64,000 bases of DNA from assembly GCA_016938275.1 (NCBI GenBank), contig JAFGUZ010000169.1, positions 1,734 through 65,733 of the forward strand, in the 5' to 3' direction. A program made the translations under genes and the position numbers. Positions 3,809 to 58,336 of this stretch are shown in pieces (the first letter of the stretch is position 1; each line of letters opens with the position of its first letter). This stretch comes from Candidatus Delongbacteria bacterium (lineage in GTDB: Bacteria; UBA4055). The notes beneath the pieces are model-generated. The model made no database searches. It saw only the letters and a program-made list of their open reading frames with translations, and was not told the DNA's origin.

Positions 3809-3842
3809 ATCTTATTTTATTGGATTAAAATTGGAGAATTAA

Positions 3843-7351: not shown

Positions 7352-7353
7352 AA

Positions 7354-8025
7354 TTACTTTCCTTTCCTTAAGTTTCGACTATTTTCAAGTGCATTTACTA
7401 AAGCATTGAAAATTTGCTCGTTGTAGAATTGACCTCTAGTAGAAGTAACAATATTTCCATCGACAACTGGTAAAATATTTTGTCCATCATAGATACCACC
7501 AGCAGCCAAAACCTCATTTAGAAATATATTTCCATTTCCAGCTTTGCCTGTTACGTGCTTTCCATTGATTACATCTGCTGCTGCAAGTACTCTCATTCCT
7601 GCACATGTTGCTGAAACTACTAAACCAGCTTCATTTGCATTGTGAATAAGTTCAAGACATTCTGGTGAATTTTTAAGATCCATATAGGCTGTACTTCCTA
7701 CCACTAACCAACTACTTGAAGCAACTACAACACAATCATAAACCGTAACATCTGTTATATCTGAGATCTTTATATCTACAGGATAAGAGTTGCTCCCCTG
7801 ACTTGAACTGTAGTTACATGGCTGAACGGTACTATCTACAGCTGTTAAAGTTACTTCCCATCCATAACTATCCATCATCTCACGTATAAGATGAGTGTTT
7901 AATCCAAAATACTTCGGAAGAATTACCAAAGCTTTAACATTCTCTGCCACTATTGTTGAAACAAACAACAGAGTTAATACTACTACACTTACTTTCATAA
8001 GCACTCCTTTCAATCTTTTAAACAA
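7354..8025 (-). CDS. DJ-1/PfpI family protein (class I glutamine amidotransferase-like), secreted
   Basis: ATCAGMRVLAAADVINGKHVTG nucleophile-elbow region with a catalytic Cys; N-terminal signal peptide; 2-nt gap to the downstream T9SS cargo gene. Confidence 0.7.
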   Translation of the reverse strand: MFKRLKGVLMKVSVVVLTLLFVSTIVAENVKALVILPKYFGLNTHLIREMMDSYGWEVTLTAVDSTVQPCNYSSSQGSNSYPVDIKISDITDVTVYDCVVVASSSWLVVGSTAYMDLKNSPECLELIHNANEAGLVVSATCAGMRVLAAADVINGKHVTGKAGNGNIFLNEVLAAGGIYDGQNILPVVDGNIVTSTRGQFYNEQIFNALVNALENSRNLRKGK

Positions 8026-8138
8026 AATCTAAAAAGACTGACACAGTGTACGTCAATAACAATTTTTTTTCTGAGACTTGACAAACACGGTGTCAGAGAT
8101 GTTATAATTTTCTATATTACTATTTAAGGATTGGAGAT

Positions 8139-9035
8139 TTGATGAAAAAAATTGTAGTGTCGACTTTTGTTGGGAATAAACAAGACCTAAATGATACATT
8201 ATTGATGGCTGAAAGTGTGAAGAGATTTTCTATAAATGAAGATATTCTAATACTTGTTTATTACGCGAGTTGTTTACAGGTAGATAAGCATCTGGAACAG
8301 GTATTTGAAAATTTAAATATTCAAGCGGAAAGTCTAAAACTTGACCAAAAAATCTTAGATTTTCCTTATGCTGCGAAAGTTTTTGCGTCCTCTTCTGCAG
8401 AAAAAATTGCTCTTGCAAATGATATGGATTTAATCTGGATTGATCCTGATAATATATTTCTAAAATCACTTAAATTGATAAAAATCCCTGAAAGCAAGAA
8501 GATAGGATTAAGACCAGTATACTTACTAAATATTGGATCGAAGATAAATGAAGAGCCGAATGATTTCTGGAAATTTATTTATAGAGATTGCAGAACAGAT
8601 ATTTCAAAGATTTTTCCAGTTGAAACGATAGTAGATAAAAAAATAGTTAGAAATTACTTCAATGTAGGTTTTATGTACATTAAACCTAAGTATGGAATTT
8701 TAAATAAGTGGGCTTCAAACTTTAGAAAAGTATTGTATAATGAAAATTATACACGTTTTTATTCTGATAATCTCTATAAAGTTTTTGTTCATCAGGCTGT
8801 TTTTTCAGCAACTTTATCCGAGCTTTACGATAAAAATGATATTGAAATTTTTGATAAAAGCTTTAGTTTCTCTCTCTATTTTCATGGTAAAAATCCAAAT
8901 ACAACAAATGAATTCTCTGAAGTATTTAACTTAAGACATGAATGGTTTTGGAATATTCATAACTGGGAAAAAATACTACCATTTAGTCCTGAGATAAATA
9001 CTTGGATAATCGATAAAAGAAAATTATGGAGTTAA
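8139..9035 (+). CDS. Hypothetical protein, possibly a DxD-type nucleotide-sugar transferase-like fold
   Basis: LIWIDPDNIF motif; no confident family assignment; translationally coupled to the next gene. Confidence 0.35.
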   Translation: MMKKIVVSTFVGNKQDLNDTLLMAESVKRFSINEDILILVYYASCLQVDKHLEQVFENLNIQAESLKLDQKILDFPYAAKVFASSSAEKIALANDMDLIWIDPDNIFLKSLKLIKIPESKKIGLRPVYLLNIGSKINEEPNDFWKFIYRDCRTDISKIFPVETIVDKKIVRNYFNVGFMYIKPKYGILNKWASNFRKVLYNENYTRFYSDNLYKVFVHQAVFSATLSELYDKNDIEIFDKSFSFSLYFHGKNPNTTNEFSEVFNLRHEWFWNIHNWEKILPFSPEINTWIIDKRKLWS

Positions 9036-22823: not shown

Positions 22824-25151
22824 TTATTTCTGATGATCACTTTTCTCATAATTTTTCAAATCCTGGATTCTCTCTAAAAGATCATCCCTTTTAAACAACT
22901 TAGCTTGTTCCTCTAATCTTATAATTTTCCTTTTATTTATCTTTCTTTTTTTTATTGTTAGATTCAGTTCAACCTCCTCGATCTCTACCTCGCAAATTCT
23001 GAACAAATCATGATTTATTTTAAAATGTCGTTTACAGTTTCTTAAACATTTAAATGCCATATCATAATGATTTAAACCCTTATAGGCATAAAACTTACCT
23101 TGATATGCTAAACCTACAAATAGAACTTCATTATTTCTTTTTGCCAGTTTTAATTGTTTATCAAAATATAAAATAGCATTACTATAATGTTCTAATTGCA
23201 ATGAGCAGATACCTAAGTTTGTTATAGCAGTAAACTTCAATCGTATATTATCAATATTTTCAGATAAATGAAGCTGCTGATTAAATCGATTGATCGCTAT
23301 TTTATATTTTTTTTTACTTAAGTAGACCGCTCCAATATTTCCCATAGCAGTTGCTATAAATTCGAGATTTTTCATATTTGTAGAAATCTCAAGATCTTTT
23401 AAATGACACTTAAGAGCTTCTTTATATTTTTTTAAAGACATCAAACATATTCCTTTTATCCTATAAGCAATTGCTCTCCCAATGTCACTCTTAATTTTTC
23501 TACTAATTGATAAATAATTATCAGCATACAAGATACTTTGGGTATAATCATTTTTTCGTAATGATAGCATTGCTAGTTTACTTAAACTCTCACCTTGAAG
23601 TTGAAGATTAGTGTTCTTATAACCTAGTTCAATCAATGGTTTATAGTATTTTTCTGCTTCATCGATATTATTTCTAAACAAATAGAGTCCACCAATTCGA
23701 CTAAGGACTGTTGCTTCTAAAGAATAATCTTCTATCCTTTTGGCTACCTCTCTTGCTTTCAAAAGATAAAATCTACCCTTTTCTGTCTCTCCAATTGTTA
23801 AGAAATATGTTCCTAAATTGAGTTGTGCAAAATATAGATCTTTAGGACGATTATATTGCTTTGACAATGTTTCAAGCTTTAGAAAAGTATCTATTGATAA
23901 TTGTTTTTGGCCAGTTTTTTTATAAATATTTGACAAATTTGAATAACTCTCAATTTTTAAGTCTATACTATCTTCAGCACAATTATTTATACAATCAATA
24001 TAAAAGCTTTGAGCTTGAGTATAGTTTAGTTTAATCTCATTGAATTTTGCAGAGATAAAATAATATCTCGTTGAAGTTAAACTATTTTTTTTGATCCACA
24101 TCTTATATATGATCAACATTTCTTCACAAATATCAAATTTTTCATTAAAAGAGGCTTTTTCAATTACAAGAGAAAGTAGAAGTTCAAATTCTGGAATAAC
24201 ATACTTATTCTCAATTAAATAACGAAAAATTGGAATATACATTTTCAAAGATAAATTCATTGCTTTTGTTTCTAATTCAGTAGTTAGATATATTATAAAC
24301 TTACGAGCAAATTTAAAACTCATGGAAAATCGTTCAAAGTTTAGTCTCTCAAACAAAGGTAAACACAACTTAATATCTCTATAATTCACAAACTTGTTAA
24401 GATTAAACTTTAAAATTTCAATAATTGAACTAATTCTTAATTCATTCAAACTCTTAAAATTCAATTTACTAATTAGATGTTTTAAATCCAGATAATAAGA
24501 ATTTTTAAGTTTAACTTTTATTGGAGGAGAGTTTGTATAGTTTGATACAATATTATAAAAGGGACCACTACTTTTTGCATAATGAAAGAATCTTCCCATA
24601 CCAACTTGTACCTTATCTACATGATCAAAACCGTTTAACAAAGTGGTATTTTTAAAGACATATTCAGCAAAATTAGCATTAGTTTGAGAGATGTTTTCAT
24701 TTGTAAAACCAATAATTATCGTATCACTTTTTAAATTGTGAGCTATTTGTATATATTTATATAAACTTTGCACTTGCAAAGGTACAGTATTAAATTGAAT
24801 AACAACTGAATTTACTTTGTTATCTTCTGAAATATATTGAGAAATCTTTTTTAAAACAGTAGATTCTGAAGCCTCAATTTCAAACTCGTCAATTATTTTA
24901 CTTGCACTCCATTTTGGATAAACTGTTTTTGCTGTGATAATTGTAGAAACTATATCATCAGATAAAGAAGAAGGATGAGTTTGTAGTAGTCTAGACTTTG
25001 TTTTCAGTCCAAATTCACCTTCAAGTTTATATCTTTTCACCCATTTTGAAACACTAACTCTAGAAATTTTATATATTTCAGCACTATAAGTGATACCTTT
25101 TTCTAAAGCAGTCTTTACTACTTTGTATCTTAGTTCTGCATTTAACTTCAT
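22824..25151 (-). CDS. Regulatory protein with an N-terminal transposase-like HTH and a C-terminal TPR repeat array
   Basis: N-terminal LRYKVVKTALEKGITYSAEIYKISRVSVSKWVKRYKLEGEFGL is an HTH resembling the IS630/IS3 OrfA family; multiple 34-aa TPR-like repeats follow. Confidence 0.55.
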   Translation of the reverse strand: MKLNAELRYKVVKTALEKGITYSAEIYKISRVSVSKWVKRYKLEGEFGLKTKSRLLQTHPSSLSDDIVSTIITAKTVYPKWSASKIIDEFEIEASESTVLKKISQYISEDNKVNSVVIQFNTVPLQVQSLYKYIQIAHNLKSDTIIIGFTNENISQTNANFAEYVFKNTTLLNGFDHVDKVQVGMGRFFHYAKSSGPFYNIVSNYTNSPPIKVKLKNSYYLDLKHLISKLNFKSLNELRISSIIEILKFNLNKFVNYRDIKLCLPLFERLNFERFSMSFKFARKFIIYLTTELETKAMNLSLKMYIPIFRYLIENKYVIPEFELLLSLVIEKASFNEKFDICEEMLIIYKMWIKKNSLTSTRYYFISAKFNEIKLNYTQAQSFYIDCINNCAEDSIDLKIESYSNLSNIYKKTGQKQLSIDTFLKLETLSKQYNRPKDLYFAQLNLGTYFLTIGETEKGRFYLLKAREVAKRIEDYSLEATVLSRIGGLYLFRNNIDEAEKYYKPLIELGYKNTNLQLQGESLSKLAMLSLRKNDYTQSILYADNYLSISRKIKSDIGRAIAYRIKGICLMSLKKYKEALKCHLKDLEISTNMKNLEFIATAMGNIGAVYLSKKKYKIAINRFNQQLHLSENIDNIRLKFTAITNLGICSLQLEHYSNAILYFDKQLKLAKRNNEVLFVGLAYQGKFYAYKGLNHYDMAFKCLRNCKRHFKINHDLFRICEVEIEEVELNLTIKKRKINKRKIIRLEEQAKLFKRDDLLERIQDLKNYEKSDHQK

Positions 25152-45812: not shown

Positions 45813-47186
45813 ATGACATTAGACGAGATAAAAAGGTTTATAGAACTGGGTGAAGGTTTTCATCTTGAGTTGAAAGAATCATTAGATAAAAATTTAATAG
45901 AAGAAGTTTGTGCTTTTGCTAATTCCAGTGGCGGAAAAATTATACTCGGAGTTACAGATAAAGGTATTATAAAAGGAATCAATACAGATAATGCCACTCG
46001 TTCAAAAGTACAAGATATGTTACAACAGCTTGAACCTTCTTTACCTATTATAATCAGTGTGCTTGAAAATTTAATAATAATTGATGTACCTCAGGGAACA
46101 GAAAAACCTTATGGTTGTTCAAGAGGATTTTTTTTAAGAATTGGTCCAAATAGTCAAAAATTATCAAGAAATGAAATCGTTAGTTTTTTTGAAAAAGAAG
46201 GTCGAATTCGTTTTGATGAATTAGAAAACAGAAAAGCTGATTTCAGTAATGACTTTGACGAGAATGCATATAAGAAATTTATTCAACTTGCTAATATAAC
46301 GCCGTCTATTGAAAAAACATATCTTTTAAAAAACCTTGACTGCTTAAATGAGAATAGTAAACTGACTAATGCTGGAGTACTCTTTTTTACAAAATCAACT
46401 GATTTCTTAATAAATCATGCAACTGTTGTATGTGTTTTATATAAAGGAAATGAAAAACTTCATATCTTAGATAAGAAAGATTTTAAATCCAGCATCATTG
46501 AAAATATTGAAAACGCTGTTCTTTTTGTACAAAGACATACAAATCTTGCCTATAAAATAGAGCATTTACAAAGAGAAGAAATACCGGAAATACCAGAACT
46601 AGCTTTAAGAGAATCTATTATTAATGCTGTTTGCCATCGAGATTACTTCCAAAAAGGCTCTAATGTTATGATTGAAATATTTGATGATAGAGTTGAGATA
46701 TCAAATCCTGGAGGAATACCTTCTGAATTAGATCCGGCTGATTTTGGCACTAAAAGTGTAGCTCGGAATCCTGTTATCGCTTCATTATTACATCGAGTTG
46801 ATTATATTGAGAAAATAGGTAGTGGAATAAACAGGATAAAAAATTCTGTCAGTGATCAAAACAGTTGTACAGTTGAGTTTAAGCTTACTGGCTTTTTTAC
46901 AGTAACTTTTAAAAGAGTAGATATGATTATGAGCAGTAAAACTTCGGAGAAAACTTCGGAGAAAACTTCGGAGAAAACTTCGGAGAAAACTTCGGAGAAA
47001 ACTTCGGAGAAAATATTAAATTTGTTAAAAGAAAACTCAACAATTACTATTCAGGATTTAGCAAATTTACTCAATAAATCTACAAGGGCTGTAGAGATGC
47101 AGATTAGCAAACTAAAGTCTGAGAATAAAATTTTAAGAATTGGTGCCGATAAAGGTGGATACTGGGAAGTTGTCGAAAAAGAATGA
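45813..47186 (+). CDS. AlbA_2 (Schlafen-like) + HATPase_c_4 putative transcriptional regulator with an internal SEKT x6 repeat and a C-terminal wHTH
   Basis: N-terminal FHLELKESLD…AFANSSGGKIILGV (AlbA_2); ALRESIINAVCHRDY…GSNVMIEIFDDRVEISNPGG (HATPase_c_4); C-terminal TIQDLANLLNKSTRAVEMQISKL. Confidence 0.6.
   Translation: MTLDEIKRFIELGEGFHLELKESLDKNLIEEVCAFANSSGGKIILGVTDKGIIKGINTDNATRSKVQDMLQQLEPSLPIIISVLENLIIIDVPQGTEKPYGCSRGFFLRIGPNSQKLSRNEIVSFFEKEGRIRFDELENRKADFSNDFDENAYKKFIQLANITPSIEKTYLLKNLDCLNENSKLTNAGVLFFTKSTDFLINHATVVCVLYKGNEKLHILDKKDFKSSIIENIENAVLFVQRHTNLAYKIEHLQREEIPEIPELALRESIINAVCHRDYFQKGSNVMIEIFDDRVEISNPGGIPSELDPADFGTKSVARNPVIASLLHRVDYIEKIGSGINRIKNSVSDQNSCTVEFKLTGFFTVTFKRVDMIMSSKTSEKTSEKTSEKTSEKTSEKTSEKILNLLKENSTITIQDLANLLNKSTRAVEMQISKLKSENKILRIGADKGGYWEVVEKE
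46941..47012 (+). repeat. Perfect 12-nt tandem repeat (ACTTCGGAGAAA) x6, encoding (TSEK)6
   Basis: Six identical in-frame units within the linker of the 45813..47186 gene. Confidence 0.9.
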
Positions 47187-47536: not shown

Positions 47537-49258
47537 CTAATTTGTTCCTTTTTTTAAAAGAAATTTATTACCAGAATAGTGAAAACTACATGGATTTTTG
47601 ATAAGAATCTTATATCCTTTTCCTGGTTGCATTTCATTGAGAGAATGATAATTCCATAACGGAACATTCAAATATCCTTCAATCGATTTAACAGCATAAA
47701 TATTATTCAGAATATCAGATAAAACCTCGTCTACAGTAATTGAAGTATTCTTATAATAAGGTAAAAAATTCCACCCGATTTCTAGATCGATAATTTCAAC
47801 TTCTGGATTAATAATATTCCCTTGTAAAGTTAAATTTACACTTTCTGTAGTTTTAACAAAGAAACAATCATCAAAATCCCATTGCATCTGAGATCTATTT
47901 TTCAATAATGGACTGTAAATATTTCCCAATTCATCTTTAACGAGAATTACACTATTGTTAATCTCTGAAAAAATTTGATCAATATTTGACTGTATCGGAT
48001 TTATATATGAAGAAATAAGATTCCAACCTTTTTCTAATGAAATTGTTTGTGAACCTCCAATAACTTCGATGTTAAAGATATGATGAATCTGAGCAAAACC
48101 ATCTGAAAAAGTTAGATTAATTTCATAATCACCAATATCACTCACTTGAGGAGTTCCAGATAATTTTTTAGTAGTATTATCATATACCATCCAACTTGGT
48201 ATTGTCGCATTAGTAGTTTCAATATTATCACCATCTATGTCTTGAATTGCTATATCGTAGAGATATTCAGTTCCAATTAAAGCAATAGTTTCAGGGCTTG
48301 ATGCTATTTCAGGTGATTTATTACCAAATGACCCTGTCAAAATAAAATTATTACCAAAGTTAGAACTATTAAAGTTAAGTAAATTATTGTTTATGTTAAC
48401 TTGATTTATAGTTTCAAGTGTATCTACAGCATAAAATGAATTATACATATGATTTTCTGCTCCATTTAGGTCAGAATCTAAATATGAACAGTTAAAACTA
48501 CATTCATAACCGGAAATACCATTCATTTTAATAGACCAGTACCTATTGATGGAGGAGCTAGCTGAACTTAAAGAAAATTTTTCACTCTTAAGTGATACTT
48601 CTACACTACTTTTATTAAAAACACCTGATGAAAAATTCAGCGTAATTGGAGTTATATTATCTCCATCAGCTATAGTATTAATTGGAAATGTAAAAATTCC
48701 TGAACTATTATAATCTTTTAATACGCTACCGCCATCTTCAATAGTTATGTATCCATTATCCCTTAAAACATCAACTCCCTCAGCAAAATAAACACTATTA
48801 CTTCCTGTTCTAATTTTACTATCGTTTAGAAAAAGTGAATTTTCAATTCTTATGGGAATATTCAAACATATACCAAAAGGATTATTTAGCTCGAGTTTAT
48901 TAAATGTTATAGAGTAAACTCCAGATAAAGTTTGAATACTTAAACCATTAAATAATGTTTTACCTCTAGAATTGTAATGAATTGGGTTAGCTGAGTTGTT
49001 TTGACTAATAAAATCTCCGGTAAGACTAAAAACTGCGTTTTCAAAAATATTTACAGCACCATATCCGAAACTTTTATAATCTCCATCAACAGTAAAAAAA
49101 GTACCATTTTCAACAACTATATAAGCACGATCATTACTTACAATCACTTTATCATCATCTTTCGAGTCGTTAATCTCTATCTTATAGTCAGTACTATTAC
49201 TATGGACATGATAGGTAAAGAAAAATAAAACTATTAGAATTATAATATTTTTTTTCAT
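47537..49258 (-). CDS. Secreted protein with a cadherin-like/putative Ig (He_PIG-like) domain
   Basis: Signal peptide; …IPSWMVYDNTTKKLSGTPQVSDIGDYEINLTFSDG… matches the He_PIG pattern. Confidence 0.45.
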   Translation of the reverse strand: MKKNIIILIVLFFFTYHVHSNSTDYKIEINDSKDDDKVIVSNDRAYIVVENGTFFTVDGDYKSFGYGAVNIFENAVFSLTGDFISQNNSANPIHYNSRGKTLFNGLSIQTLSGVYSITFNKLELNNPFGICLNIPIRIENSLFLNDSKIRTGSNSVYFAEGVDVLRDNGYITIEDGGSVLKDYNSSGIFTFPINTIADGDNITPITLNFSSGVFNKSSVEVSLKSEKFSLSSASSSINRYWSIKMNGISGYECSFNCSYLDSDLNGAENHMYNSFYAVDTLETINQVNINNNLLNFNSSNFGNNFILTGSFGNKSPEIASSPETIALIGTEYLYDIAIQDIDGDNIETTNATIPSWMVYDNTTKKLSGTPQVSDIGDYEINLTFSDGFAQIHHIFNIEVIGGSQTISLEKGWNLISSYINPIQSNIDQIFSEINNSVILVKDELGNIYSPLLKNRSQMQWDFDDCFFVKTTESVNLTLQGNIINPEVEIIDLEIGWNFLPYYKNTSITVDEVLSDILNNIYAVKSIEGYLNVPLWNYHSLNEMQPGKGYKILIKNPCSFHYSGNKFLLKKGTN

Positions 49259-49262
49259 CAGG

Positions 49263-51086
49263 TTATTCCTTTGATGAATTATTACTTTTTATCAAATCTT
49301 CAACAACTTTCTTTAATTCCTCGATCTGTTTTTGCTGATTTTCTATCAATAATTGCTGTTCCTGAATCGCTTTTGTTAATACTGGAACTATACCATCATA
49401 ATTTATTCCTAAAGTCTCCCCTTTTTCAATGTCACCTTCCATACCACTTACAACCTCTGGTAATATTTCTCTGATCTCTTGTGCTATAAAACCCAGCTGT
49501 TCTTTTTTCTCTGTATCAGATTTGTAATTATATGAGACCGGTTTCAGCTTCATAATTTGTTTGATTCCATTTTTTTCATATGGAGTGATGTTTTCCTTCA
49601 ATCTTGAGTCCGAAGCACTAACCCAAGTTTCTCCATCAGAATATGCTCCACCATCAAGTGCGAAGAGATGATAAGTATATATTGATCCAATCCCAACATT
49701 TCCATTTGTCATAACTGTAAATGAAATATCACCAGTATACATATTATCTTTTTCAGCTCCCCTCCTTACTTGAAAAGCTATGTTATAATCATTATCCTTC
49801 TCAGTTCCTATAACCATAGCTGCTTCTTTCCCGTAAAAGTAATAACTCGGCCATTCAAGATTTTCTGATACAATATGAAATCTATACTTTGGATTGACTC
49901 CAATCCCCACATCTCCTTCTTCTGTTAATCTTATCTTAGAAGATGGATAATTATTTTCATATACAGGAACTCTAATATCAGTCCAATTTTGATATCCATC
50001 ATGACCAACTTCAATAACTGTTTGTTGATCCCAATATGATGCTCCCATCGAAAGTAATACTCCATAGGTTTCACCTAAATGAAGCAAACCGTATGGATTT
50101 AAAGTCTTAATTCCAAATTTACCAGCTTTATTAAATGTGAATAAATTCTGACTGGACTCAGATACAATCATCTGATCTGAGGATGCAGGAGAGAAAATTT
50201 GCCAGTCTGTGTCATAGGAAGTATCTGTTCTTTTGATTTGGTATCCTGACTGAACATTAGTTGAGACTGATGCAGAAATTCTATTTAAAGTTGTATTTGA
50301 AACTTCCAAACTATTAGTAGAATTAGTTGTACCAATGGAAACATTTCCACCAAAATAACTTTTTGCTGTACCATTGGAATAGAATGCGTAATTATTTGAA
50401 GCAGAATTTAAACCAGAAACATAAAAAGCATAATTGTTATTATTTCCAATGTTTTCTAAGTCAGCATAGTAGCCATAATTTGTTGAATTGCTTGCTCCAT
50501 TTACATATGTATTAACTCCATAGTTTACAACACCACCAGATAATCCTTGAATTAAAATATTTGCACCGATATTGTATGTTGCTCCTGCAACATCTAAGGA
50601 TATACCCCTATTCTGAAATCCTCCTACACCTTTAGCTTCAGACATAATAGAAAAATTATCATGATTGTTTAGATTAGATAGACTTCTAATTCCAATAGAT
50701 CCTCCTTCTACCAATAATTTTGAAATACTCGGAGCAGCTCCTATACCAACATTGCCAGAATTATAGTATATATCATTACCATTTACTTCCCATTGATAGG
50801 AATTTTCACCACTGTTAATTTTCGTCCAAGCTGATCCGGTGTAATAGTAGTATCCTGTAATATCATCTGTTTGGAAAACTGTTAATCCTGAAGCTGGACT
50901 CGCAATAGCTTCTCTTTCAGATTTAGTCATTCTTGGTGCTAGAAATCCTTTTGTGGTTGAAGATACATCAAGCATAGCAGAAGGATGGGCTAAAGATCCA
51001 GTCGTGTTAATACCAACTGATTGTGCATTTATTACTGTTGTAAAAAACAACAATGCGATCAAAAAAAACTTTACACACTTAACCAT
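49263..51086 (-). CDS. Tail-fibre-domain protein with a C-terminal intramolecular chaperone (peptidase S74) domain
   Basis: N-terminal …TKGFLAPRMTKSEREAIASPASGLTVFQTDD…; C-terminal SDSRLKENITPYEKNGIKQIMKLKPVSYNYK…GFIAQEIREILPEVV…INYDGIVPVLTKAIQEQ is the endosialidase-type chaperone domain. Confidence 0.6.
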   Translation of the reverse strand: MVKCVKFFLIALLFFTTVINAQSVGINTTGSLAHPSAMLDVSSTTKGFLAPRMTKSEREAIASPASGLTVFQTDDITGYYYYTGSAWTKINSGENSYQWEVNGNDIYYNSGNVGIGAAPSISKLLVEGGSIGIRSLSNLNNHDNFSIMSEAKGVGGFQNRGISLDVAGATYNIGANILIQGLSGGVVNYGVNTYVNGASNSTNYGYYADLENIGNNNNYAFYVSGLNSASNNYAFYSNGTAKSYFGGNVSIGTTNSTNSLEVSNTTLNRISASVSTNVQSGYQIKRTDTSYDTDWQIFSPASSDQMIVSESSQNLFTFNKAGKFGIKTLNPYGLLHLGETYGVLLSMGASYWDQQTVIEVGHDGYQNWTDIRVPVYENNYPSSKIRLTEEGDVGIGVNPKYRFHIVSENLEWPSYYFYGKEAAMVIGTEKDNDYNIAFQVRRGAEKDNMYTGDISFTVMTNGNVGIGSIYTYHLFALDGGAYSDGETWVSASDSRLKENITPYEKNGIKQIMKLKPVSYNYKSDTEKKEQLGFIAQEIREILPEVVSGMEGDIEKGETLGINYDGIVPVLTKAIQEQQLLIENQQKQIEELKKVVEDLIKSNNSSKE

Positions 51087-51244: not shown

Positions 51245-53236
51245 CTAATCATGACACAACGAACATTTAATATCATCGTTAGTTTTATGATTTCCACTGA
51301 ATGAAAAGCTCCATTCATCATGGCAACGTAGACAATCAAATGAAGCATTAACATGAAACTTAGAAGATGCTTTTAAAAAGTCAGTTTTATGACAATCATA
51401 ACAATTATTATGAGGTTTAGTAGTTCTGAAAGTAATATCATTTTCATGGCATTCATCACAATCGGCAATTTTATGAGAACCATTGAGTCTAAATCCCGAA
51501 AATTTATGTTTATAATCTAAAATACTCCATTCTTCAACATCATGACATTCGGAGCAATTACTATTTAAATAACCTTTATGATAATCTGAATGACAACTAA
51601 TACATGATGACGACACATTAAAATTATGATTCTTATGACAGACATTACAATCTGTTTGAGCATGCTTTCCAGCTTCGAACTTTTGGTTCTTGTGATCATA
51701 ATTTACATTCTTAAACTTAACATCATTATGACAGGTATTACACTTTAAGTCTAGATTATTATTATGGATATTCTCATGACAAAATTTACAATCAATTGAT
51801 TTATCCTCAAAAACTGCATTTTTTACATTTTTATAATCCGGACTGCTTCCACTCCACTTGTGACACTCTCTACATTTCAAATCTTTATGGCTGTTTACGG
51901 TTTTAAAATTTAGTTTATTATGATCAAATTTACCGGTATTTTTCCAATCAGTCTGATTATGACAATCCAAACAATTTTTACTCAATTGATTATTATGACG
52001 ATCTTCATGGCAGTCTAGACAAGTAACATCTTTATCAGAAATATAAAACTTATGCTCTTTTTTATGGCATTTACTACACTCTTTATCCTTGTGAGCCTCA
52101 ACTAGTTCATATTTTGCCAATCTTGTATGGTCGAAATTGTCTGCAATCTTAAAATTTTTCTGATTATGGCACTTCAGACATTCATCACTTAATGTATTTT
52201 TATGAACATCCTCATGGCAGCTTTGACAAGTGGAAAATTTCAATTTTCGATTAACTTTATGGCATTCAAAACATTTTAAATCTGCATGAGTATCCACTAG
52301 TTCGTAATTTGATACTTTCTTATGGTCAAAAGGTTTTAAATCTTTAAATGATGTTTCCTTATGACATAATTGACAATCTTTATCCTTAGTATCGAAAACA
52401 TTTTGGTGGTTTGATTCATGACAAGATGAGCAAGTTTTTTTATCAAGCTTGTACTCTCTGGTTTCATGGCAAGTATTACAACTTAATGTTCTATGAACAT
52501 CAACAAGTTTAAAACCTGTCGTATCATGATTAAAAATTTCTGGTTGAAAAAATGTTTTATCAAAAACACTGTGGCAAGCTTCGCATTTATTGCCAAGTTT
52601 TCCTTTATGAGGCTCATCTTTTCCGTGACAATCAATACAATTTTTCTTTTCAGTTTTAAATTTATATTCAGAGTGACACTTAAGACAAGTTAGCTTAGTA
52701 TGAGAACCCAAAATATCAAATTTATCATGTTTAAAACTATCATTCATTTTCTTGAAACTATTTGTATTATGGCATCTCTCACAATCATTATCAAACTCTT
52801 TATCATGTTTACTTTCATGGCATGTATGACAATTTGTAGACTCTACCATATACGTGGAATCACTTTTTGTATGGCAATTATTACAATTAACTCTAATATG
52901 ATTTCCAGTAAGTTTATATCCTGTTTCATCATGATTAAAGGATCCAATATTCAAATTTCTAGAATCATAATCTATTCCATGATGGTCAGAATGACACTTA
53001 AAACAATCCTCTTTCTTATCTTTATGATAACCTTTATTTTCGTCAATTCTCTTCTTTAAAACTTTATGACATGCTAAACACAAATCTTCAGATAAAGTTT
53101 TTTCAGAGGTGTGACATAATGAACAGCTATCCAGCGTATCGTAAGCAGAATGAGACTTTGTCAATTTTCCTGGACTGAAAATACTTGAAATTCCCAGAAC
53201 TGTCAGGATGAATATGAATAGAATTATTTTTTTCAT
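51245..53236 (-). CDS. Periplasmic multiheme cytochrome c (about 28 CxxCH motifs)
   Basis: Signal peptide; about 28 CxxCH haem-binding sites in 663 aa with repeating CxxCH-(x)n-H modules. Confidence 0.85.
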   Translation of the reverse strand: MKKIILFIFILTVLGISSIFSPGKLTKSHSAYDTLDSCSLCHTSEKTLSEDLCLACHKVLKKRIDENKGYHKDKKEDCFKCHSDHHGIDYDSRNLNIGSFNHDETGYKLTGNHIRVNCNNCHTKSDSTYMVESTNCHTCHESKHDKEFDNDCERCHNTNSFKKMNDSFKHDKFDILGSHTKLTCLKCHSEYKFKTEKKNCIDCHGKDEPHKGKLGNKCEACHSVFDKTFFQPEIFNHDTTGFKLVDVHRTLSCNTCHETREYKLDKKTCSSCHESNHQNVFDTKDKDCQLCHKETSFKDLKPFDHKKVSNYELVDTHADLKCFECHKVNRKLKFSTCQSCHEDVHKNTLSDECLKCHNQKNFKIADNFDHTRLAKYELVEAHKDKECSKCHKKEHKFYISDKDVTCLDCHEDRHNNQLSKNCLDCHNQTDWKNTGKFDHNKLNFKTVNSHKDLKCRECHKWSGSSPDYKNVKNAVFEDKSIDCKFCHENIHNNNLDLKCNTCHNDVKFKNVNYDHKNQKFEAGKHAQTDCNVCHKNHNFNVSSSCISCHSDYHKGYLNSNCSECHDVEEWSILDYKHKFSGFRLNGSHKIADCDECHENDITFRTTKPHNNCYDCHKTDFLKASSKFHVNASFDCLRCHDEWSFSFSGNHKTNDDIKCSLCHD

Positions 53237-54459
53237 AGTAGATTTATATAGTTATACCCAACTTTAAAACTTATTAATATATGAACTATCAACAAGATAA
53301 ACATTATTATCGTTGCGACAATGTGAATTATATGCCATGACTTTAGAAGATTTCTATAACAAGTGAATCTAAAATATTGAAAATAAAGGACAGCAATTTT
53401 TTGCTCATCTTCACTGGTTATTCCTAAAGATTTAAAAAATCTAACCATACCAAACAAGACTGATTTTGGAATTTTCCTGGAGTCTTTTATCTTTTCTAAT
53501 CTATTTAGTAAATTTTGCAAATTTTCTTTATCTTCTGAATTTAAAATAATATGCTCTGCTTTAGCTAGAAACTCCATATGACTTTCATCGTAGAAAAAGA
53601 AAAATGAAAGTTTAGTGTAAACATATCTTCCCAATGCACCAGTAAGCACAGCAAGTAGTGTCGCTAAAAAAAGATAGAAAGCTAAAGTCTCACTATTAAA
53701 TTTAAACGCAGTATGCCAAATGATCAGAACAAAAGCCATTACACCCGTCGTCATATGAATCTTTAGATTTCGTTCCAGATTAAATTTTTCGTATCGTTTA
53801 AATCTTCTGATATAAACATAAAATAGGTTTATTAAAAAAAGTAAAGTCCCCACAATTCCAAGCATATGACCAACAAGTCCGCCGGGTTTAAGAAAAAAAT
53901 GTAGATCATTTTGAAGTCTCTGTTCGATCGGAGTTGAATAGTAGTTATAAAACATAAAAGCAGGAACAACCGTTATCATAATAAATAGAAGTGAAAGTAG
54001 ATAGTATTTCAAATTATCAAACGGTTTAAAATCCTCTTCACAACCTTCAATTAAAGCTCCAGTAGGACAAGCAATTATACAGGATTTATTTTCAAAACCT
54101 TTACACAAATCACACTTCATAACAGAGTCAGCTCTCCCACGCTTTTCTCTATTGTTAAATACTGCCGAAAGAACACCATTCGAACATTTCTTAACACACA
54201 ACGTACAGCTAATACATTTGGAATAATCAATTATAGGAATCTGTTTTTCATCGTCAATTGTAATGCATTTTACAGGACATGATGCCATACATGCATGATC
54301 TTCACAGATAAGACAATTTACAGTTTTACGTATGAATCCTACTTCTTCACCATATGGAATACGTCTATTTTGTCCGTGTCTATCAGCACAAGCTGTTTCA
54401 CAAAGTCCACAATCTATACATCTGTCAGTTCTGCAATATATTATATTTTTTCTACTCAT
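53233..54459 (-). CDS. Membrane-anchored polyferredoxin: N-terminal cytoplasmic domain with four [4Fe-4S]-type Cys clusters fused to a five-helix His-rich membrane domain (NarI/HdrE/DsrM-like candidate di-haem b)
   Basis: CIDCGLCETAC, CLICEDHACMASCP, CISCTLCVKKC and CDLCKGFENKSCIIACP; then five hydrophobic helices with conserved His (GHMLG, IHMTTG, WHTAF, WHIIHIV, VHILI). No signal peptide. Confidence 0.65.
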   Translation of the reverse strand: MSRKNIIYCRTDRCIDCGLCETACADRHGQNRRIPYGEEVGFIRKTVNCLICEDHACMASCPVKCITIDDEKQIPIIDYSKCISCTLCVKKCSNGVLSAVFNNREKRGRADSVMKCDLCKGFENKSCIIACPTGALIEGCEEDFKPFDNLKYYLLSLLFIMITVVPAFMFYNYYSTPIEQRLQNDLHFFLKPGGLVGHMLGIVGTLLFLINLFYVYIRRFKRYEKFNLERNLKIHMTTGVMAFVLIIWHTAFKFNSETLAFYLFLATLLAVLTGALGRYVYTKLSFFFFYDESHMEFLAKAEHIILNSEDKENLQNLLNRLEKIKDSRKIPKSVLFGMVRFFKSLGITSEDEQKIAVLYFQYFRFTCYRNLLKSWHIIHIVATIIMFILLIVHILISFKVGYNYINLL

Positions 54460-55279
54460 TCCAATTCACCTGATTATGACAAGTATAGCATGCTGTATCT
54501 TCAGTTGGTTCATGATGAGAATTAAAATCATCCTCATGACAATAGAAACAGATCAATTTATTATCTTCTGGCGGTATTCCCAAGTGACATGTCGAGCAAC
54601 TGTAAGTTGCATGTTCACCCTCAATTACAAAAGAGTGACTATAATTTTGTACATTCCAATTATCCAGATCGGTATGACAATCAAGGCAATTTGAATTATT
54701 TTCAAAGTATTGGTGAATCTCATTTTGATCTTCTCCAATGTGACAGTTCAGGCAAACATTACGATTGTCTATATAATTATCAAAATGGCAGGCTATACAA
54801 GTATAAATTTGATGATATTCGCCAATTACAAGTTTAGTATGAGTGTAATTTTGAACATACCAGTCTGAATCATTATGGCAAGTTTCACATGATGAACTGA
54901 AAAGATTTGTGAAATGATTTACATAACTGTCGCTTCCTGGACGTTCTGTAGCATGACAATTTATACACTGCTTACCGATATTATGATAATCTACTGTGTA
55001 TTCAGTCATTTGATGACATTCATAACAAGTAGTTTGAATATTGTTTAATTTGTGATTTGGAACTTTAGCCGTATCGTACATCTCTGTATGACATGAAATA
55101 CACTGAATATTTTTGTATTCAGAATCATCTATATGGCAGACATTACAATCCTCAACAATATGCCTACCCAATTGCTCTTCAGTGTGATAATCCTGAGGAG
55201 ATAAATTGTTTTTGACTTTTTCACCATCTATACATGAGATTGTAAGCGATATAAGTATAAGATATATTATAATTTTCAT
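54452..55279 (-). CDS. Multiheme cytochrome c lipoprotein (11 CxxCH)
   Basis: Lipoprotein signal (LTISC); 11 CxxCH motifs in 275 aa. Confidence 0.85.
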   Translation of the reverse strand: MKIIIYLILISLTISCIDGEKVKNNLSPQDYHTEEQLGRHIVEDCNVCHIDDSEYKNIQCISCHTEMYDTAKVPNHKLNNIQTTCYECHQMTEYTVDYHNIGKQCINCHATERPGSDSYVNHFTNLFSSSCETCHNDSDWYVQNYTHTKLVIGEYHQIYTCIACHFDNYIDNRNVCLNCHIGEDQNEIHQYFENNSNCLDCHTDLDNWNVQNYSHSFVIEGEHATYSCSTCHLGIPPEDNKLICFYCHEDDFNSHHEPTEDTACYTCHNQVNWNE

Positions 55280-56415
55280 TTATGATCCAATGAATACTTG
55301 AAAGTAATATTTGCTATCTGTCTTGCATGTTTTGCAGTATCAATTACAGTATCAAACCCAAAAATAAGCTTAAAATTTTCAGTTTTCCATATACCTGATA
55401 TTCTTGGCATTATTGTTAATACGATATCCGTATAATCACTGGAATTTGAAGATTCTGTAACTAATTCAAGCCCAGCCCTTAAAAGAAAATTTCTAGAAAA
55501 TTTCTCCGTTACTCCAGTTTCAAAATCAATATAATCACACCAATTATTACTTCCTGCAATAATGTCAGAATACATATCATAACCAAAAATAAATTTGTAA
55601 ATTTCAGAATTTACACCAAACTCCACAAATTTATATTCGCCATCTCTGTATTTTGAGTTTACGTTTAAATTGAATTTCTCGAAAGGAATGTAGGTTGATA
55701 AACCATAAGTAGAAAATCTTGATTTAGAATAGATCGTATCATTTATTGCATCTGTAAAATACAATTGATTTGAATAATCTGTTCTAAGAATAAATCTATC
55801 AAAATCGTATGAGATTTGAGCACTACCATTCTTTAAATTACTATCGCTGAAATTGTAATTAAAAATTCCTGAAAAACTTTTCTCTGAATCGTTGTAGTTT
55901 AAGAAATTACAGAAATAGTATTTCCCTTGGTCTTTATTTAAAGAAGTATTAAAACCTATTAACTCTGATGAAATTCTAACTCCGGTGAAAAAATTTGTTA
56001 CATCTGCACTAAACTTATCATAATCCACACTACTTCCCACACCTGTATAGAAACCTAATTTATCAGTACCATAAGGTTCGCTAAAAATATAAGCTCCATC
56101 ATACAAGCCTGATATGGAAGGTAAAGGTATAAAATATCTACCAAGTACCATTGTATAATGTTTTTTAATTAAACTCATTTCTAGTTTCTTGACTTGAAAG
56201 TAGTTGTCATTATAAGTTTCTGTAATTTTGTTTTTGAAGAATAAATCATAGTCATAAACTACATTTTCTCCGTAAAATCCATCAGATTTAAAACCTAATC
56301 CAGGGGACAAATAGTAATTGGATCTACTATCAATACTAAAGCCGGACTTTGAATAGAACTCCAAATTTCCGGCTAAAATAATATTTACGAATATTAGAAC
56401 AAGAAATAATTTCAC
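55276..56415 (-). CDS. Putative outer-membrane beta-barrel (porin-like) protein
   Basis: Signal peptide; amphipathic beta-strand composition rich in Y/F/N/S/T/G with alternating hydrophobics; aromatic-rich C-terminal strand (…ITFKYSL); GTG start overlapping the upstream stop. Confidence 0.5.
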   Translation of the reverse strand: MKLFLVLIFVNIILAGNLEFYSKSGFSIDSRSNYYLSPGLGFKSDGFYGENVVYDYDLFFKNKITETYNDNYFQVKKLEMSLIKKHYTMVLGRYFIPLPSISGLYDGAYIFSEPYGTDKLGFYTGVGSSVDYDKFSADVTNFFTGVRISSELIGFNTSLNKDQGKYYFCNFLNYNDSEKSFSGIFNYNFSDSNLKNGSAQISYDFDRFILRTDYSNQLYFTDAINDTIYSKSRFSTYGLSTYIPFEKFNLNVNSKYRDGEYKFVEFGVNSEIYKFIFGYDMYSDIIAGSNNWCDYIDFETGVTEKFSRNFLLRAGLELVTESSNSSDYTDIVLTIMPRISGIWKTENFKLIFGFDTVIDTAKHARQIANITFKYSLDHK

Positions 56416-57242
56416 TATTTAACCAGTATCATCTTTCTTGAAAGTTCCTGATTTATTCCAGAAAATTTAACGAAATAAACACCACTTATTAATCTACTTC
56501 CATCAAAATTGAAAGAGTGTATTCCTGAGCTTAGTTTACCATTATAGACTTCTGCAACGATTTCTCCTTTTGCATTTACAACATTGAGTTTACCATAATC
56601 TTCCACATCAGATTTAAGTTCAATCGTTGTAGTTGGATTAAAAGGATTTGGATAGTTTGAAATATTCATATTGGAAGCCAAATTCTCATCAATACCAACA
56701 GGATTAACAAGTATATCAATGTTTTCACTTTGCTCATAATCGTTATTACCTACAAATGCGTAGGCTTTTAAAGTATAAGTTCCAGCGGTTTCAGGAGCTT
56801 TTAATGTCCAAGTCCAAACCAGACTTCCATCAGCTCTTTCGTTGTAATTAAATTTTGTAGTATTGCTATTAGGATCTTCAATTATTTCCCAACCTTTATT
56901 TTGAGGCATGTCAACAGTAGAACCATCAACGCTCATAAGATACACACCCATAATTTTACCAGCACCAGGATGGAACGGAGGATTGTAGCCAGGAGCTACT
57001 TCGTAAGTAAAGGTTATCTCTTCATTTATGTTTACTTCTACTTGTGTTGTTGTTAATACTAAGTTTTTTTGACCATTTGAAGGTCCTGAAGAGTGACATG
57101 ATCTACAGTATTGATTACCATACTTGTCAGTCAGATAACTTCCGTTCCAGTTTCCAGGAACATTACTGCCATTTGTGTAATGATTTGCATAGCCAAATGC
57201 AAAACCAACTAAAGCTACTATTGCTATTGCGATTATTTTCAC
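56415..57242 (-). CDS. Secreted monoheme c-type (CxxCH) protein with an Ig-like middle region and a T9SS C-terminal domain
   Basis: Signal peptide; single CRSCH; C-terminal ISNYPNPFNPTTTIELKSD…SGVYFVKFSG…RKMILVK; GTG start with a GGGG RBS. Confidence 0.6.
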   Translation of the reverse strand: MKIIAIAIVALVGFAFGYANHYTNGSNVPGNWNGSYLTDKYGNQYCRSCHSSGPSNGQKNLVLTTTQVEVNINEEITFTYEVAPGYNPPFHPGAGKIMGVYLMSVDGSTVDMPQNKGWEIIEDPNSNTTKFNYNERADGSLVWTWTLKAPETAGTYTLKAYAFVGNNDYEQSENIDILVNPVGIDENLASNMNISNYPNPFNPTTTIELKSDVEDYGKLNVVNAKGEIVAEVYNGKLSSGIHSFNFDGSRLISGVYFVKFSGINQELSRKMILVK

Positions 57243-57502: not shown

Positions 57503-58336
57503 ATGATAAGAGAAATGGTAAAGATAGATAATGATAAATGTGATGGATGTGGATTATGTGTTCCAAATTGTCATGAGGGAGCATTGCAAATAATTGATGG
57601 TAAAGCAAGATTGATATCTGACCTAATGTGTGATGGTTTGGGGGCATGTATTGGACATTGTCCTCAAGGAGCTATCACGATTGAAAAAAGAGAAGCTATG
57701 CCATACGATGAGATTAAGGTATTAAAAGACAACATTATACCTGCTGGTAAAAATGTGTTAAAAGCTCATTTAGAACATCTACATGAGCATGGAGAAACTG
57801 AATATCTAAATGAAGCATTAAATTTTCTTAAGTCTGAAAATATAAATATTCCAGATTATAAAGCAGTAAAATTATGCTCAAGTGGTGGTTGTCCTGGCTC
57901 TGCAATAAAGGAGATAAAAAGAGAATCTGATGATTCAGTTAATGCAGAGACTCCATCAGAATTGACTCAATGGCCAGTTCAGTTACATTTAGCAAATCCA
58001 GCAGCTACCTATTTTAAAAATGCAGATCTTTTAGTTGCAGCAGATTGTACTGCTTTTACAATTGGTAATTTTCATTCAAAATATTTGAAAGGTAAAAAAC
58101 TTGTAATTGCTTGTCCAAAACTGGACTCAAATCAAGATGTTTATCTGAGAAAAATTAAAGCACTAATTGATCAAGCAGAAATCAATACATTAACAGTAAT
58201 GATTATGGAAGTTCCATGCTGTGGAGGTCTTGTTCAGCTAGTCAAAAATGCTGTAAATGATTCAAAGAGAAAAGTACCTGTAAAATTAATCATTGTTGGT
58301 ATAGAAGGTGTAATTAAAAAAAATGAATGGATTTAA
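57503..58336 (+). CDS. 4Fe-4S dicluster domain protein with a FrhB-like/CCG-like C-terminal domain
   Basis: CDGCGLCVPNC and CDGLGACIGHCP ferredoxin motifs; C-terminal VAADCTAF…VPCCGG. Confidence 0.5.
   Translation: MIREMVKIDNDKCDGCGLCVPNCHEGALQIIDGKARLISDLMCDGLGACIGHCPQGAITIEKREAMPYDEIKVLKDNIIPAGKNVLKAHLEHLHEHGETEYLNEALNFLKSENINIPDYKAVKLCSSGGCPGSAIKEIKRESDDSVNAETPSELTQWPVQLHLANPAATYFKNADLLVAADCTAFTIGNFHSKYLKGKKLVIACPKLDSNQDVYLRKIKALIDQAEINTLTVMIMEVPCCGGLVQLVKNAVNDSKRKVPVKLIIVGIEGVIKKNEWI

Follow-up and report, generated by a model that had tools for sequence, protein, structure and literature searches.

A ferredoxin-headed, di-heme-b-type membrane protein encoded beside a 28-heme cytochrome in Candidatus Delongbacteria: a candidate entry point for quinone-independent extracellular electron transfer

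Introduction

How could electrons cross the inner membrane to a very heme-rich periplasmic cytochrome when no quinol dehydrogenase is encoded beside it? This question is raised by a 64,000-nucleotide stretch of a Candidatus (Ca.) Delongbacteria genome (contig JAFGUZ010000169.1 of assembly GCA_016938275.1; hereafter the window), in which one gene encodes a 408-residue protein that joins a ferredoxin head with motifs for four [4Fe-4S] clusters to a membrane domain of the di-heme-b type with five transmembrane (TM) helices. The gene lies between those of two multiheme cytochromes. The extracellular electron transfer pathways characterised in diderm bacteria start from the quinone pool, which is tapped by CymA in Shewanella and by ImcH, CbcL and CbcBA in Geobacter. 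Here we examine whether the protein could be fed from the cytoplasm. The reading that we favour, and consider probable with only modest confidence, is that electrons run from a cytoplasmic donor through four Fe-S clusters and two b hemes to a 28-heme periplasmic wire and on to outer components, without a quinone.

The membrane domain has a published counterpart. He, Barco, Emerson & Roden 2017 (Front Microbiol 8:1584; PMC5566968) described a hypothetical inner-membrane protein (IMP) of the putative porin-cytochrome clusters (PCC) PCC3 and PCC4, which has five TM helices, an SGXXG motif on TM4 and a WX3HX13H motif on both TM3 and TM5; they likened it to the ferric reductase/NOX domain and predicted two b hemes. 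In PCC4 subgroup II, an Fe-S gene of pfam13247 (Fer4_11) lies directly upstream of the IMP gene, and in Oceanospirillum beijerinckii the two are annotated as one gene, which He et al. split as a probable annotation error (PMC5566968). The same authors modelled the IMP as quinone-active, by analogy with bc1 and hydrogenase cytochrome b; a cytoplasmic Fe-S route is not discussed there (PMC5566968). The periplasmic cytochrome of PCC3 has 21-27 hemes with 22-39 residues per heme (He et al. and Hoover et al.).

Genome-based hypotheses published in 2017 already covered the membrane family and its ferric-reductase-like His pairs, together with the link to a heme-dense cytochrome and the adjacent Fe-S gene. 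The initial annotation of this locus implied a novelty that was overstated in this respect, as the family, its HX13H pairs and the adjacent Fe-S gene all appear in He et al. 2017 (PMC5566968). What is added here is that the covalent Fe-S fusion is real and recurrent, that flavoprotein-headed sister proteins point to cytoplasmic donors, and that a 27-28-heme partner is strictly conserved across very distant lineages. The locus is also the first Ca. Delongbacteria example and has a surface component of the type IX secretion system (T9SS) type, and the name of the membrane domain changes from 'NarI-like' to 'PCC-IMP / ferric-reductase-like'.

Results

A four-cluster ferredoxin head at the N-terminus

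The open reading frame (ORF) is the longest reading available from the preceding stop, and an upstream extension was ruled out by an ORF check of the window. Its start codon is backed by two relatives, P0001 and P0002, whose N-termini align from residue 1. A word-indexed search found three full-length relatives, with identities of 49% (P0001), 38% (P0002) and 23% (P0003). The exact protein is present in NCBI as MBN1971391.1 and MBN2835988.1, in the phylum Ca. Delongiibacteriota, under the name 'MAG: 4Fe-4S binding protein [Candidatus Delongbacteria bacterium]' (MAG, metagenome-assembled genome); the public annotation thus covers the ferredoxin part only.

Residues 14-131 contain four Cys motifs, C14xxCxxCxxxC24, C49xxCx4Cx3C61P, C82xxCxxCxxxC92 and C116xxCx7Cx3C131P, and all 16 motif Cys are invariant across the three full-length relatives. 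They align Cys for Cys with the solved four-cluster subunits 9mqx_E (E=5.5e-11) and WOR5 subunit B, and the other sequence matches of residues 1-140 among solved proteins are HDCR HycB3, HycB and the AOR Fe-S subunit. A Foldseek search with the full-length AlphaFold model (pLDDT 81.8, pTM 0.72) led to HycB (7z0s_B, E=7e-4) and also to WOR5-B and AOR, in each case through the Fe-S head only. By its motifs, the head is a four-cluster ferredoxin of the HycB/DmsB type with 16 predicted ligands for four [4Fe-4S] clusters. The HycB-type subunits (HycB, WOR5-B, AOR Fe-S, HDCR HycB3/4) have the same four Cys motifs, a similar size of about 140-170 residues and a role as cytoplasmic wires. However, they are soluble and dock on catalytic partners, while this head is fused to a membrane domain and no catalytic partner is encoded nearby.

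The head is predicted to face the cytoplasm

To our knowledge, a domain with four [4Fe-4S] clusters reaches the periplasm only via the twin-arginine translocation (Tat) system. The protein has no signal peptide; its N-terminus, MSRKNIIYCRTDRC, contains neither an RR motif nor a hydrophobic h-region, and the first ligand is already at C14. A periplasmic Fe-S domain exported by Tat, as in NrfC, HybA, DsrO, HmcB and ActB, was rejected on the missing twin-arginine signal and on the ORF, which cannot be extended.

Five TM helices are predicted by hydropathy, at residues 150-173, 195-217, 235-253, 260-282 and 376-398, and the same number is found in two AlphaFold models, the full-length one and one of the membrane domain only (pLDDT 90.7, pTM 0.84). 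The predicted cytoplasmic loops contain many Lys and Arg residues: loop 218-234, only 17 residues long, has 7 and loop 283-375 has 15. The periplasmic side has 2 in loop 174-194, none in loop 254-259 and 1 in the C-terminal tail. Because these counts obey the positive-inside rule, the protein is predicted to be N-in and C-out, with TM3 and TM5 both running in-to-out. Three independent lines place the head in the cytoplasm: a four-cluster domain needs Tat for export and no Tat signal is present, the nearest solved relatives are cytoplasmic polyferredoxin subunits, and the corresponding N-terminal position in sister proteins is taken by a head that binds FAD and NAD(P)H, which must be cytoplasmic. 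The same N-terminus, positive-inside counts, HycB-type relatives and sister heads bear out the initial annotation, which had described cytoplasmic Cys clusters and no signal peptide. An unrecognised Tat signal, named beforehand as the observation that would speak against this, was looked for in the protein and was not found.

Four His residues are conserved on TM3 and TM5

Conservation was counted in a 111-sequence alignment of the membrane-domain family, whose members have ~23% identity to the protein. Six His residues lie in its TM helices (H198, H235, H249, H376, H379 and H393), and only four of them are conserved family-wide, namely H235 (110/111) and H249, H379 and H393 (each 111/111); H198 is kept in 74 and H376 in 76 of the 111 sequences. 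The conserved core consists of H-x13-H on TM3, W-x3-H-x13-H on TM5 and S/T-G-x-x-G-R-Y on TM4, in which W375, G201 on TM2 and G277 are present in every sequence and G274 in 110. Position 273 is Ser in 87 and Thr in 23 sequences, and the protein itself reads T273-G-A-L-G277. At the site of the TM3 Trp, which is Trp in 100 sequences, the protein has N231, and Asn is found there only in this protein. The TM3 Trp is also absent from P0001 and P0002, its closest relatives. Basic residues are conserved at both membrane faces (K/R218 in 111/111, R278 in 103, R181 in 97 and R219 in 96) and are candidates for heme-propionate binding. Two His spaced by 13 residues lie ~20 Å apart along a helix, the distance at which the paired hemes of NOX and cytochrome b usually stand. 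The K/R-rich insert between TM4 and TM5 may possibly serve as a docking surface for the Fe-S head or for partners.

The membrane domain resembles the PCC3/PCC4 IMP rather than NarI

The initial annotation had called the membrane module NarI-like and named the absence of paired His at heme-b-type positions as evidence against such a module. Paired His are indeed present, H235/H249 on TM3 and H379/H393 on TM5, and the likeness to NarI fails in Pfam, hhalign and Foldseek comparisons and in the positions of the ligand helices. A match to PF02665, expected for a NarI/HdrE/DsrM identity, is absent in the protein and in 111 relatives. The hhalign comparison with E. coli NarI gave E=0.32 over 18 irrelevant residues without a His, and in the Foldseek search with the membrane-only model NarI (1siw_C) ranked 37th, with E=4.4 and a TM-score of about 0.2. 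The heme ligands of E. coli NarI in the NarGHI structure are H56/H66 on TM2 and H187/H205 on TM5, whereas the invariant His of the protein are on TM3 and TM5 with a 13-residue spacing.

The features of the published IMP are found in the protein: five TM helices, S/T-G-x-x-G, both H-x13-H pairs and the TM5 W-x3-H, with the TM3 Trp absent. As to gene context, the operon encodes 28- and 11-heme cytochromes, and a porin candidate (g2) is suggested by a sequence pattern only. On the exact motif set, the ~300-residue size of the stand-alone members and this gene context, we assign the membrane domain to the PCC3/PCC4 IMP group. Both are modules of ~270-300 residues whose neighbours include very heme-dense cytochromes, with 28 hemes here and 21-27 in PCC3. 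The published clusters also have a putative porin, where the operon has the candidate g2, and a four-cluster Fe-S partner is known in PCC4 subgroup II. The two modules differ in that the Fe-S protein is covalently fused here, that the host belongs to Ca. Delongbacteria instead of Proteobacteria, Planctomycetes or similar, and that the outer parts are a T9SS-tailed monoheme protein, an 11-heme lipoprotein and a small 379-residue barrel candidate.

In its design, the membrane domain is like ferric reductases and DUF4405 proteins, and we claim membership of neither Pfam family. The ferric reductase domain superfamily (NOX/DUOX, FRE, STEAP, MsrQ/YedZ; PF01794), reportedly treated by Zhang et al. 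in 2013, has bis-His pairs on TM3 and TM5 with a spacing of 12-13 residues, matched here by H235/H249 and H379/H393, and two stacked b hemes whose inner heme is fed by a cytoplasmic redox head, an arrangement that we predict for this protein. In contrast to that superfamily, it has five TM helices instead of six, an N-terminal Fe-S head instead of a C-terminal FAD/NADPH head, and a 93-residue cytoplasmic helical insert between TM4 and TM5; its Pfam score is below the cut-off, and the fold and profile comparisons are not significant.

In the Pfam scan of the protein, Ferric_reduct reached 15.0-16.5 bits (cut-off 28) and Ni_hydr_CYTB E=0.41, all sub-threshold, and DUF4405 (PF14358) gave no match. 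Only di-heme cytochrome b families recur in the 111 relatives: DUF4405 weakly in 70 (best E=7.2e-7; P0011 has 25.6 bits against a cut-off of 26.7, and individually scanned relatives are just below it), Ni_hydr_CYTB weakly in 27 (best E=1.6e-7), Ferric_reduct (PF01794) weakly in 26 (best E=2.8e-5) and PepSY_TM in 4. Sequence searches of the PDB with two membrane-domain profiles returned spurious coiled-coil matches only. A DUF4405 protein has been purified and binds heme b, and the structure modelled for it is similar to those of MsrQ and of FoxB, a PepSY-like protein (mSystems 2024; PMC11334425). Together with the related PepSY-like FoxB and FezC, DUF4405 cytochromes have been proposed to carry electrons across the cytoplasmic membrane to extracytosolic acceptors (PMC11334425). 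They share with the membrane domain a transmembrane helical bundle with four central conserved His, but they have six TM helices in models and their partners are flavinylated (ApbE) proteins rather than multiheme cytochromes.

Cytoplasmic heads recur in the family

An exhaustive HMMER search with a four-sequence membrane-domain profile, counted as representative clusters, gave a family of 2,252 clusters at E<=1e-3, of which 996 remain under the stricter limit of E<=1e-10. Most members are stand-alone proteins of ~290 residues. We classified the heads of 151 representatives, with P0104 counted in both headed classes described here. No head is present in 120 of them. A four-cluster Fe-S head is found in 13, comprising four that are short like the protein studied here, eight with an extra ~200-residue N-terminal extension, and P0104. 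Nine have a head that combines a 2x[4Fe-4S] ferredoxin with a Pyr_redox_3/Pyr_redox_2 FAD/NAD(P)H domain (P0062, P0071, P0097, P0104, P0114, P0134, P0146, P0153 and P0154), and the remaining class of other extensions has 10. The four-cluster fusions occur in Ca. Delongbacteria and Myxococcota, and the flavoprotein-headed sisters occur in Archangium and Myxococcaceae MAGs, where they are annotated only as 'NAD(P)-binding domain-containing protein'.

Since heads recur at the same N-terminal position in the representatives, the fusion is a genuine recurrent architecture and not a gene-calling artefact. By analogy, the flavoprotein-headed sisters have a bacterial NOX-like layout with the domain order reversed. 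A flavin/NAD(P)H head on a di-heme domain is the NOX design, and this is the strongest comparative argument suggesting that cytoplasmic carriers feed the membrane module.

The relatives with the extra N-terminal extension are ~700 residues long (P0003, P0010, P0020, P0021, P0079, P0083, P0102 and P0121, and one at locus L003). They come from high-GC loci, and the one with a named host is from a Kofleriaceae MAG (L003). The extension itself has no Pfam match. Three shorter Fe-S-only relatives, P0005, P0008 and P0009, carry cNMP-binding domains, a hint of a regulatory module.

A 27-28-heme cytochrome adjoins the fused protein at related loci

A scan of GTDB genomes gave one related locus, in the Kofleriaceae MAG, and a scan of metagenomes gave eight, mostly distant or short. 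At every locus with enough flanking sequence, a homologous 27-28-heme cytochrome adjoins the Fe-S-fused protein (Table 1). The pairing spans contigs of 28-72% GC, those of 72% GC being from Myxococcota, and the cytochromes are 663 to about 820 residues long. The heme number of the partner looks constrained, perhaps by the width of the periplasm. In heme number and heme density, the partner agrees with the values published for the periplasmic cytochrome of PCC3. Homologs of the 28-heme cytochrome (g5) are present in the related loci and those of g1 and g2 are absent, and we therefore take the Fe-S/heme-b protein and the giant cytochrome as the conserved unit. A T9SS-tailed protein also lies just upstream in L001.

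The gene is part of a five-gene cytochrome operon

The gene is the fourth of five minus-strand genes, g1 to g5, with successive overlaps of 1, 4, 8 and 4 nt, which argue that the five are co-translated. The multiheme cytochromes that the initial annotation placed in its neighbourhood are there, 11 CxxCH motifs upstream and 28 downstream, and its statement that a NapC/NirT/CymA-type gene is missing holds for the whole window. In fact, the window contains no further ORF with CxxCH motifs or multiple Fe-S clusters, and so no CymA/NapC/NirT, NrfD or Cbc-type partner. Nor does the window encode a quinol dehydrogenase that could serve as another entry point. CymA/NapC/NirT, ImcH, CbcL and CbcBA serve the same inner-membrane step upstream of periplasmic multiheme cytochromes, but they are quinone-fed, use periplasmic c-hemes and/or a HydC/PhsC-type cytochrome b, and have no cytoplasmic Fe-S chain.

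Upstream of the 11-heme lipoprotein, the sequence pattern of g2 makes it a candidate small outer-membrane beta-barrel, and g1 is a candidate cell-surface monoheme component. The protein encoded by g2 is rich in Ser, Phe and Tyr, and its C-terminus (...KYSLDHK) lacks the usual terminal aromatic residue. The sorting domain of g1 suggests a surface heme protein delivered by T9SS rather than through a porin-cytochrome complex. A promoter and terminator scan was uninformative in DNA this rich in AT: it gave 60 promoter-like sites, where 42 would be expected, and not a single terminator.

Several neighbouring genes lie outside the operon (Table 1). A divergent gene encodes a 277-residue protein with an N-terminal 2x[4Fe-4S] ferredoxin and a Cys-rich C-terminus (...ACPKLD...EVPCCGG...) that matches no Pfam family; the protein could act in the cytoplasm as a partner or donor of the Fe-S head, to which adjacency alone links it. 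Two secreted proteins are encoded directly downstream of the operon, one with a Peptidase_S74 'chaperone of endosialidase' domain and the other with a He_PIG Ig-like domain. Peptidase_S74 domains typically occur in the tail fibres of phages and in surface fibres that cleave themselves. A 457-residue ORF contains, near its C-terminal region, a perfect six-fold tandem 'SEKT' repeat (...SEKTSEKTSEKTSEKTSEKTSEK...). In a 775-residue ORF, weak matches to the N-terminal region of an IS481-type transposase and to a FimS-like sensor histidine kinase form an odd pairing.

Table 1 Coordinates of the features in the window and of the partner genes at related loci.
Feature	Sequence	Coordinates	Strand	Description
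Fusion gene (g4)	window	53233..54459	-	408 aa; four-[4Fe-4S] ferredoxin head and five-TM di-heme-b-type membrane domain (predicted)
Fe-S head, residues 1-140	window	54040..54459	-	four-cluster polyferredoxin, like HycB, WOR5-B and AOR Fe-S subunit; 16 invariant Cys; predicted cytoplasmic
TM1, residues 150-173	window	53941..54012	-	in-to-out; hydropathy and AlphaFold
TM2, residues 195-217	window	53809..53877	-	invariant G201 and Y214; H198 not conserved family-wide
TM3, residues 228-253	window	53701..53778	-	H235-x13-H249, predicted axial ligands of inner and outer heme b
N231	window	53767-53769	-	at the Trp site of the TM3 W-x3-H motif
TM4, residues 260-282	window	53614..53682	-	T273-G274-x-x-G277-R278-Y279
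Insert between TM4 and TM5, residues 283-375	window	53335..53613	-	cytoplasmic, K/R-rich, all-helical, family-wide
TM5, residues 376-398	window	53266..53334	-	W375-x3-H379-x13-H393, all three 111/111
g1	window	56415..57242	-	275 aa; one CxxCH, BatD/Ig-like region, type IX secretion C-terminal sorting domain
g2	window	55276..56415	-	379 aa; secreted, without a Pfam match; lacks hydrophobic helices beyond its signal peptide; many alternating-hydrophobicity windows
g3	window	54452..55279	-	275 aa; 11 CxxCH, lipoprotein-type N-terminus (...LTISC); 8-nt overlap with start of fusion gene
g5	window	51245..53236	-	663 aa; 28 CxxCH, 23.7 aa per heme, signal peptide; 4-nt overlap with stop of fusion gene
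2x[4Fe-4S] protein	window	57503-58336	+	277 aa; divergent
Secreted protein	window	49263-51086	-	
Secreted protein	window	47537-49258	-	
'SEKT' repeat ORF	window	45813-47186	+	457 aa
ORF with odd domain pairing	window	22824-25151	-	775 aa
Partner cytochrome	L001	6768-9230		27 hemes; immediately downstream of fused gene; contig 28% GC; g5 homology E=7e-125
Partner cytochrome	L002	105-3488		28 hemes
Partner cytochrome	L003 (Kofleriaceae MAG)	2360-4828		27 hemes; g5 homology E=8e-74
~700-aa relative	L003 (Kofleriaceae MAG)	6618-8675		with ~200-aa N-terminal extension
Partner cytochrome	L009	2353-4641		27 hemes
Partner cytochrome	L011			at least 13 hemes before contig end

Discussion

The direct observations are the gene, its conserved motifs, the indicators of topology, a family assignment by motif and a pairing with a giant cytochrome that is kept in relatives. 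From them we infer cofactor binding, the order of carriers, independence of quinone and the direction of flow, which together make up the following path. Electrons would enter the Fe-S chain from reduced ferredoxin or from a dehydrogenase docking on the head, and would pass along the four [4Fe-4S] clusters to a b heme held by H235 and H379 near the cytoplasmic face. This inner heme would reduce a second b heme, held by H249 and H393 near the periplasmic face, and the outer heme would in turn pass electrons to the co-translated 28-heme periplasmic cytochrome g5. From g5, they may reach the surface through the 11-heme lipoprotein g3, the candidate outer-membrane barrel g2 and the T9SS-anchored monoheme protein g1. 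Taken together, the five proteins would form an extracellular electron transfer system of the PCC3 kind, with an entry at the inner membrane that is independent of the quinone pool. Since electron export is helped by the membrane potential while import to low-potential clusters is opposed by it, outward flow is favoured, and we favour a role of the conduit as an electron sink for an anaerobe rather than as a coupling site.

Several points weigh against this path. The family is still a hypothetical one, and as late as 2025 PCC3 was called 'functionally unverified'. Among solved structures, the membrane domain has no significant match; the top Foldseek match is the NOX5 TM domain, with E=0.44 and a TM-score of about 0.2, and hhalign against E. 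coli MsrQ was suggestive but not significant (E=0.075 with the single sequence, 0.12 with the family alignment), aligning only the W-x3-H...H helix, with an MsrQ template profile that was too shallow (homologs of >=84% identity among the top 120 matches listed). The Fe-S head is modelled by AlphaFold at a lower confidence (pLDDT 65-80). As the related loci lack g1 and g2 homologs, the outer part of the pathway appears to be lineage-specific. Finally, the headless majority of the family representatives implies that the core domain must be capable of working with some other partner, for which He et al. proposed the quinone pool; the protein may thus possess a quinone site.

The headless members and the quinone proposal also belong to a competing explanation that we regard as rather unlikely. 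In it, the membrane domain acts as a (mena)quinol:cytochrome c oxidoreductase, or works in reverse, and the Fe-S head is a side branch that connects the quinone/heme b site with a reaction in the cytoplasm, as in HdrDE or NarGHI. This would account for the many stand-alone members, agrees with the quinone activity that He et al. proposed from bc1 and hydrogenase cytochrome b, and fits the weak matches of 27 of the 111 members to Ni_hydr_CYTB, a quinone-reactive cytochrome b family. However, no recognisable quinone-site motif was found, similarity to NarI, HdrE or DsrM is missing, a four-cluster chain of roughly 40 Å would be costly for a side branch, and the complete NAD(P)H-flavoprotein heads of the sisters form a self-sufficient NOX-like path from donor to heme. 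The [4Fe-4S] clusters of HycB-type proteins usually have low potentials, which bears on the direction of flow. It is improbable, in our view, that the same conduit runs inward, from an extracellular donor such as Fe(II), a mineral, a cathode or a syntrophic partner through the cytochromes and b hemes to the Fe-S clusters and a cytoplasmic acceptor. PCC3 and PCC4 were discovered in Fe(II)-oxidising bacteria, in Sideroxydans CL21 iron oxidation goes along with higher expression of the PCC3 IMP gene, and multiheme conduits are generally reversible (PMC10734462). Yet inward electrons would oppose the membrane potential, uptake from donors at the level of Fe(II) would be strongly uphill, and the host is a low-GC candidate-phylum MAG that shows no sign of lithotrophy within the window.

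It is more doubtful still, to a degree that we consider very unlikely, that no envelope-spanning path exists and that the fusion protein works with the 28-heme cytochrome on a soluble substrate, as a reductase in the periplasm or as an electron-storing capacitor, with g1 and g2 as unrelated surface proteins. Only these two proteins are conserved together, and g2 has no family match. The overlaps of 1-8 nt that join all five genes argue against such a split, as does the T9SS-tailed protein at L001, and wire-like cytochromes, not enzymes, typically have a heme for every 24 residues or so. We retain the outward path from a cytoplasmic donor as the preferred reading. Extending it from this locus, we tentatively propose, as a real possibility that falls short of being probable, a modular family of five-helix di-heme-b conduits with interchangeable heads, which would wire the ferredoxin or NAD(P)H pool directly to a periplasm-spanning 27-28-heme cytochrome in a quinone-independent, NOX-like manner; the heads would be a four-cluster ferredoxin here and a ferredoxin with an NAD(P)H flavoprotein in Myxococcota.

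The locus extends porin-cytochrome-type systems to Ca. Delongbacteria, with a type IX secretion substrate as the surface component. It also provides a compact test object, as one 408-residue polypeptide and its 28-heme partner make the IMP hypothesis of He et al. 2017 addressable. If the preferred reading is true, the conduit would be a different solution from those of Shewanella and Geobacter and would follow NADPH-oxidase-like logic, in which cytoplasmic Fe-S or flavin carriers feed two b hemes and these a giant cytochrome. The energetics would then differ as well, because electron export would dissipate the membrane potential instead of building it up. A quinone-independent conduit would be a distinct inner-membrane entry route, by which fermentative or non-respiring bacteria could dump electrons outside the cell without a quinone pool.

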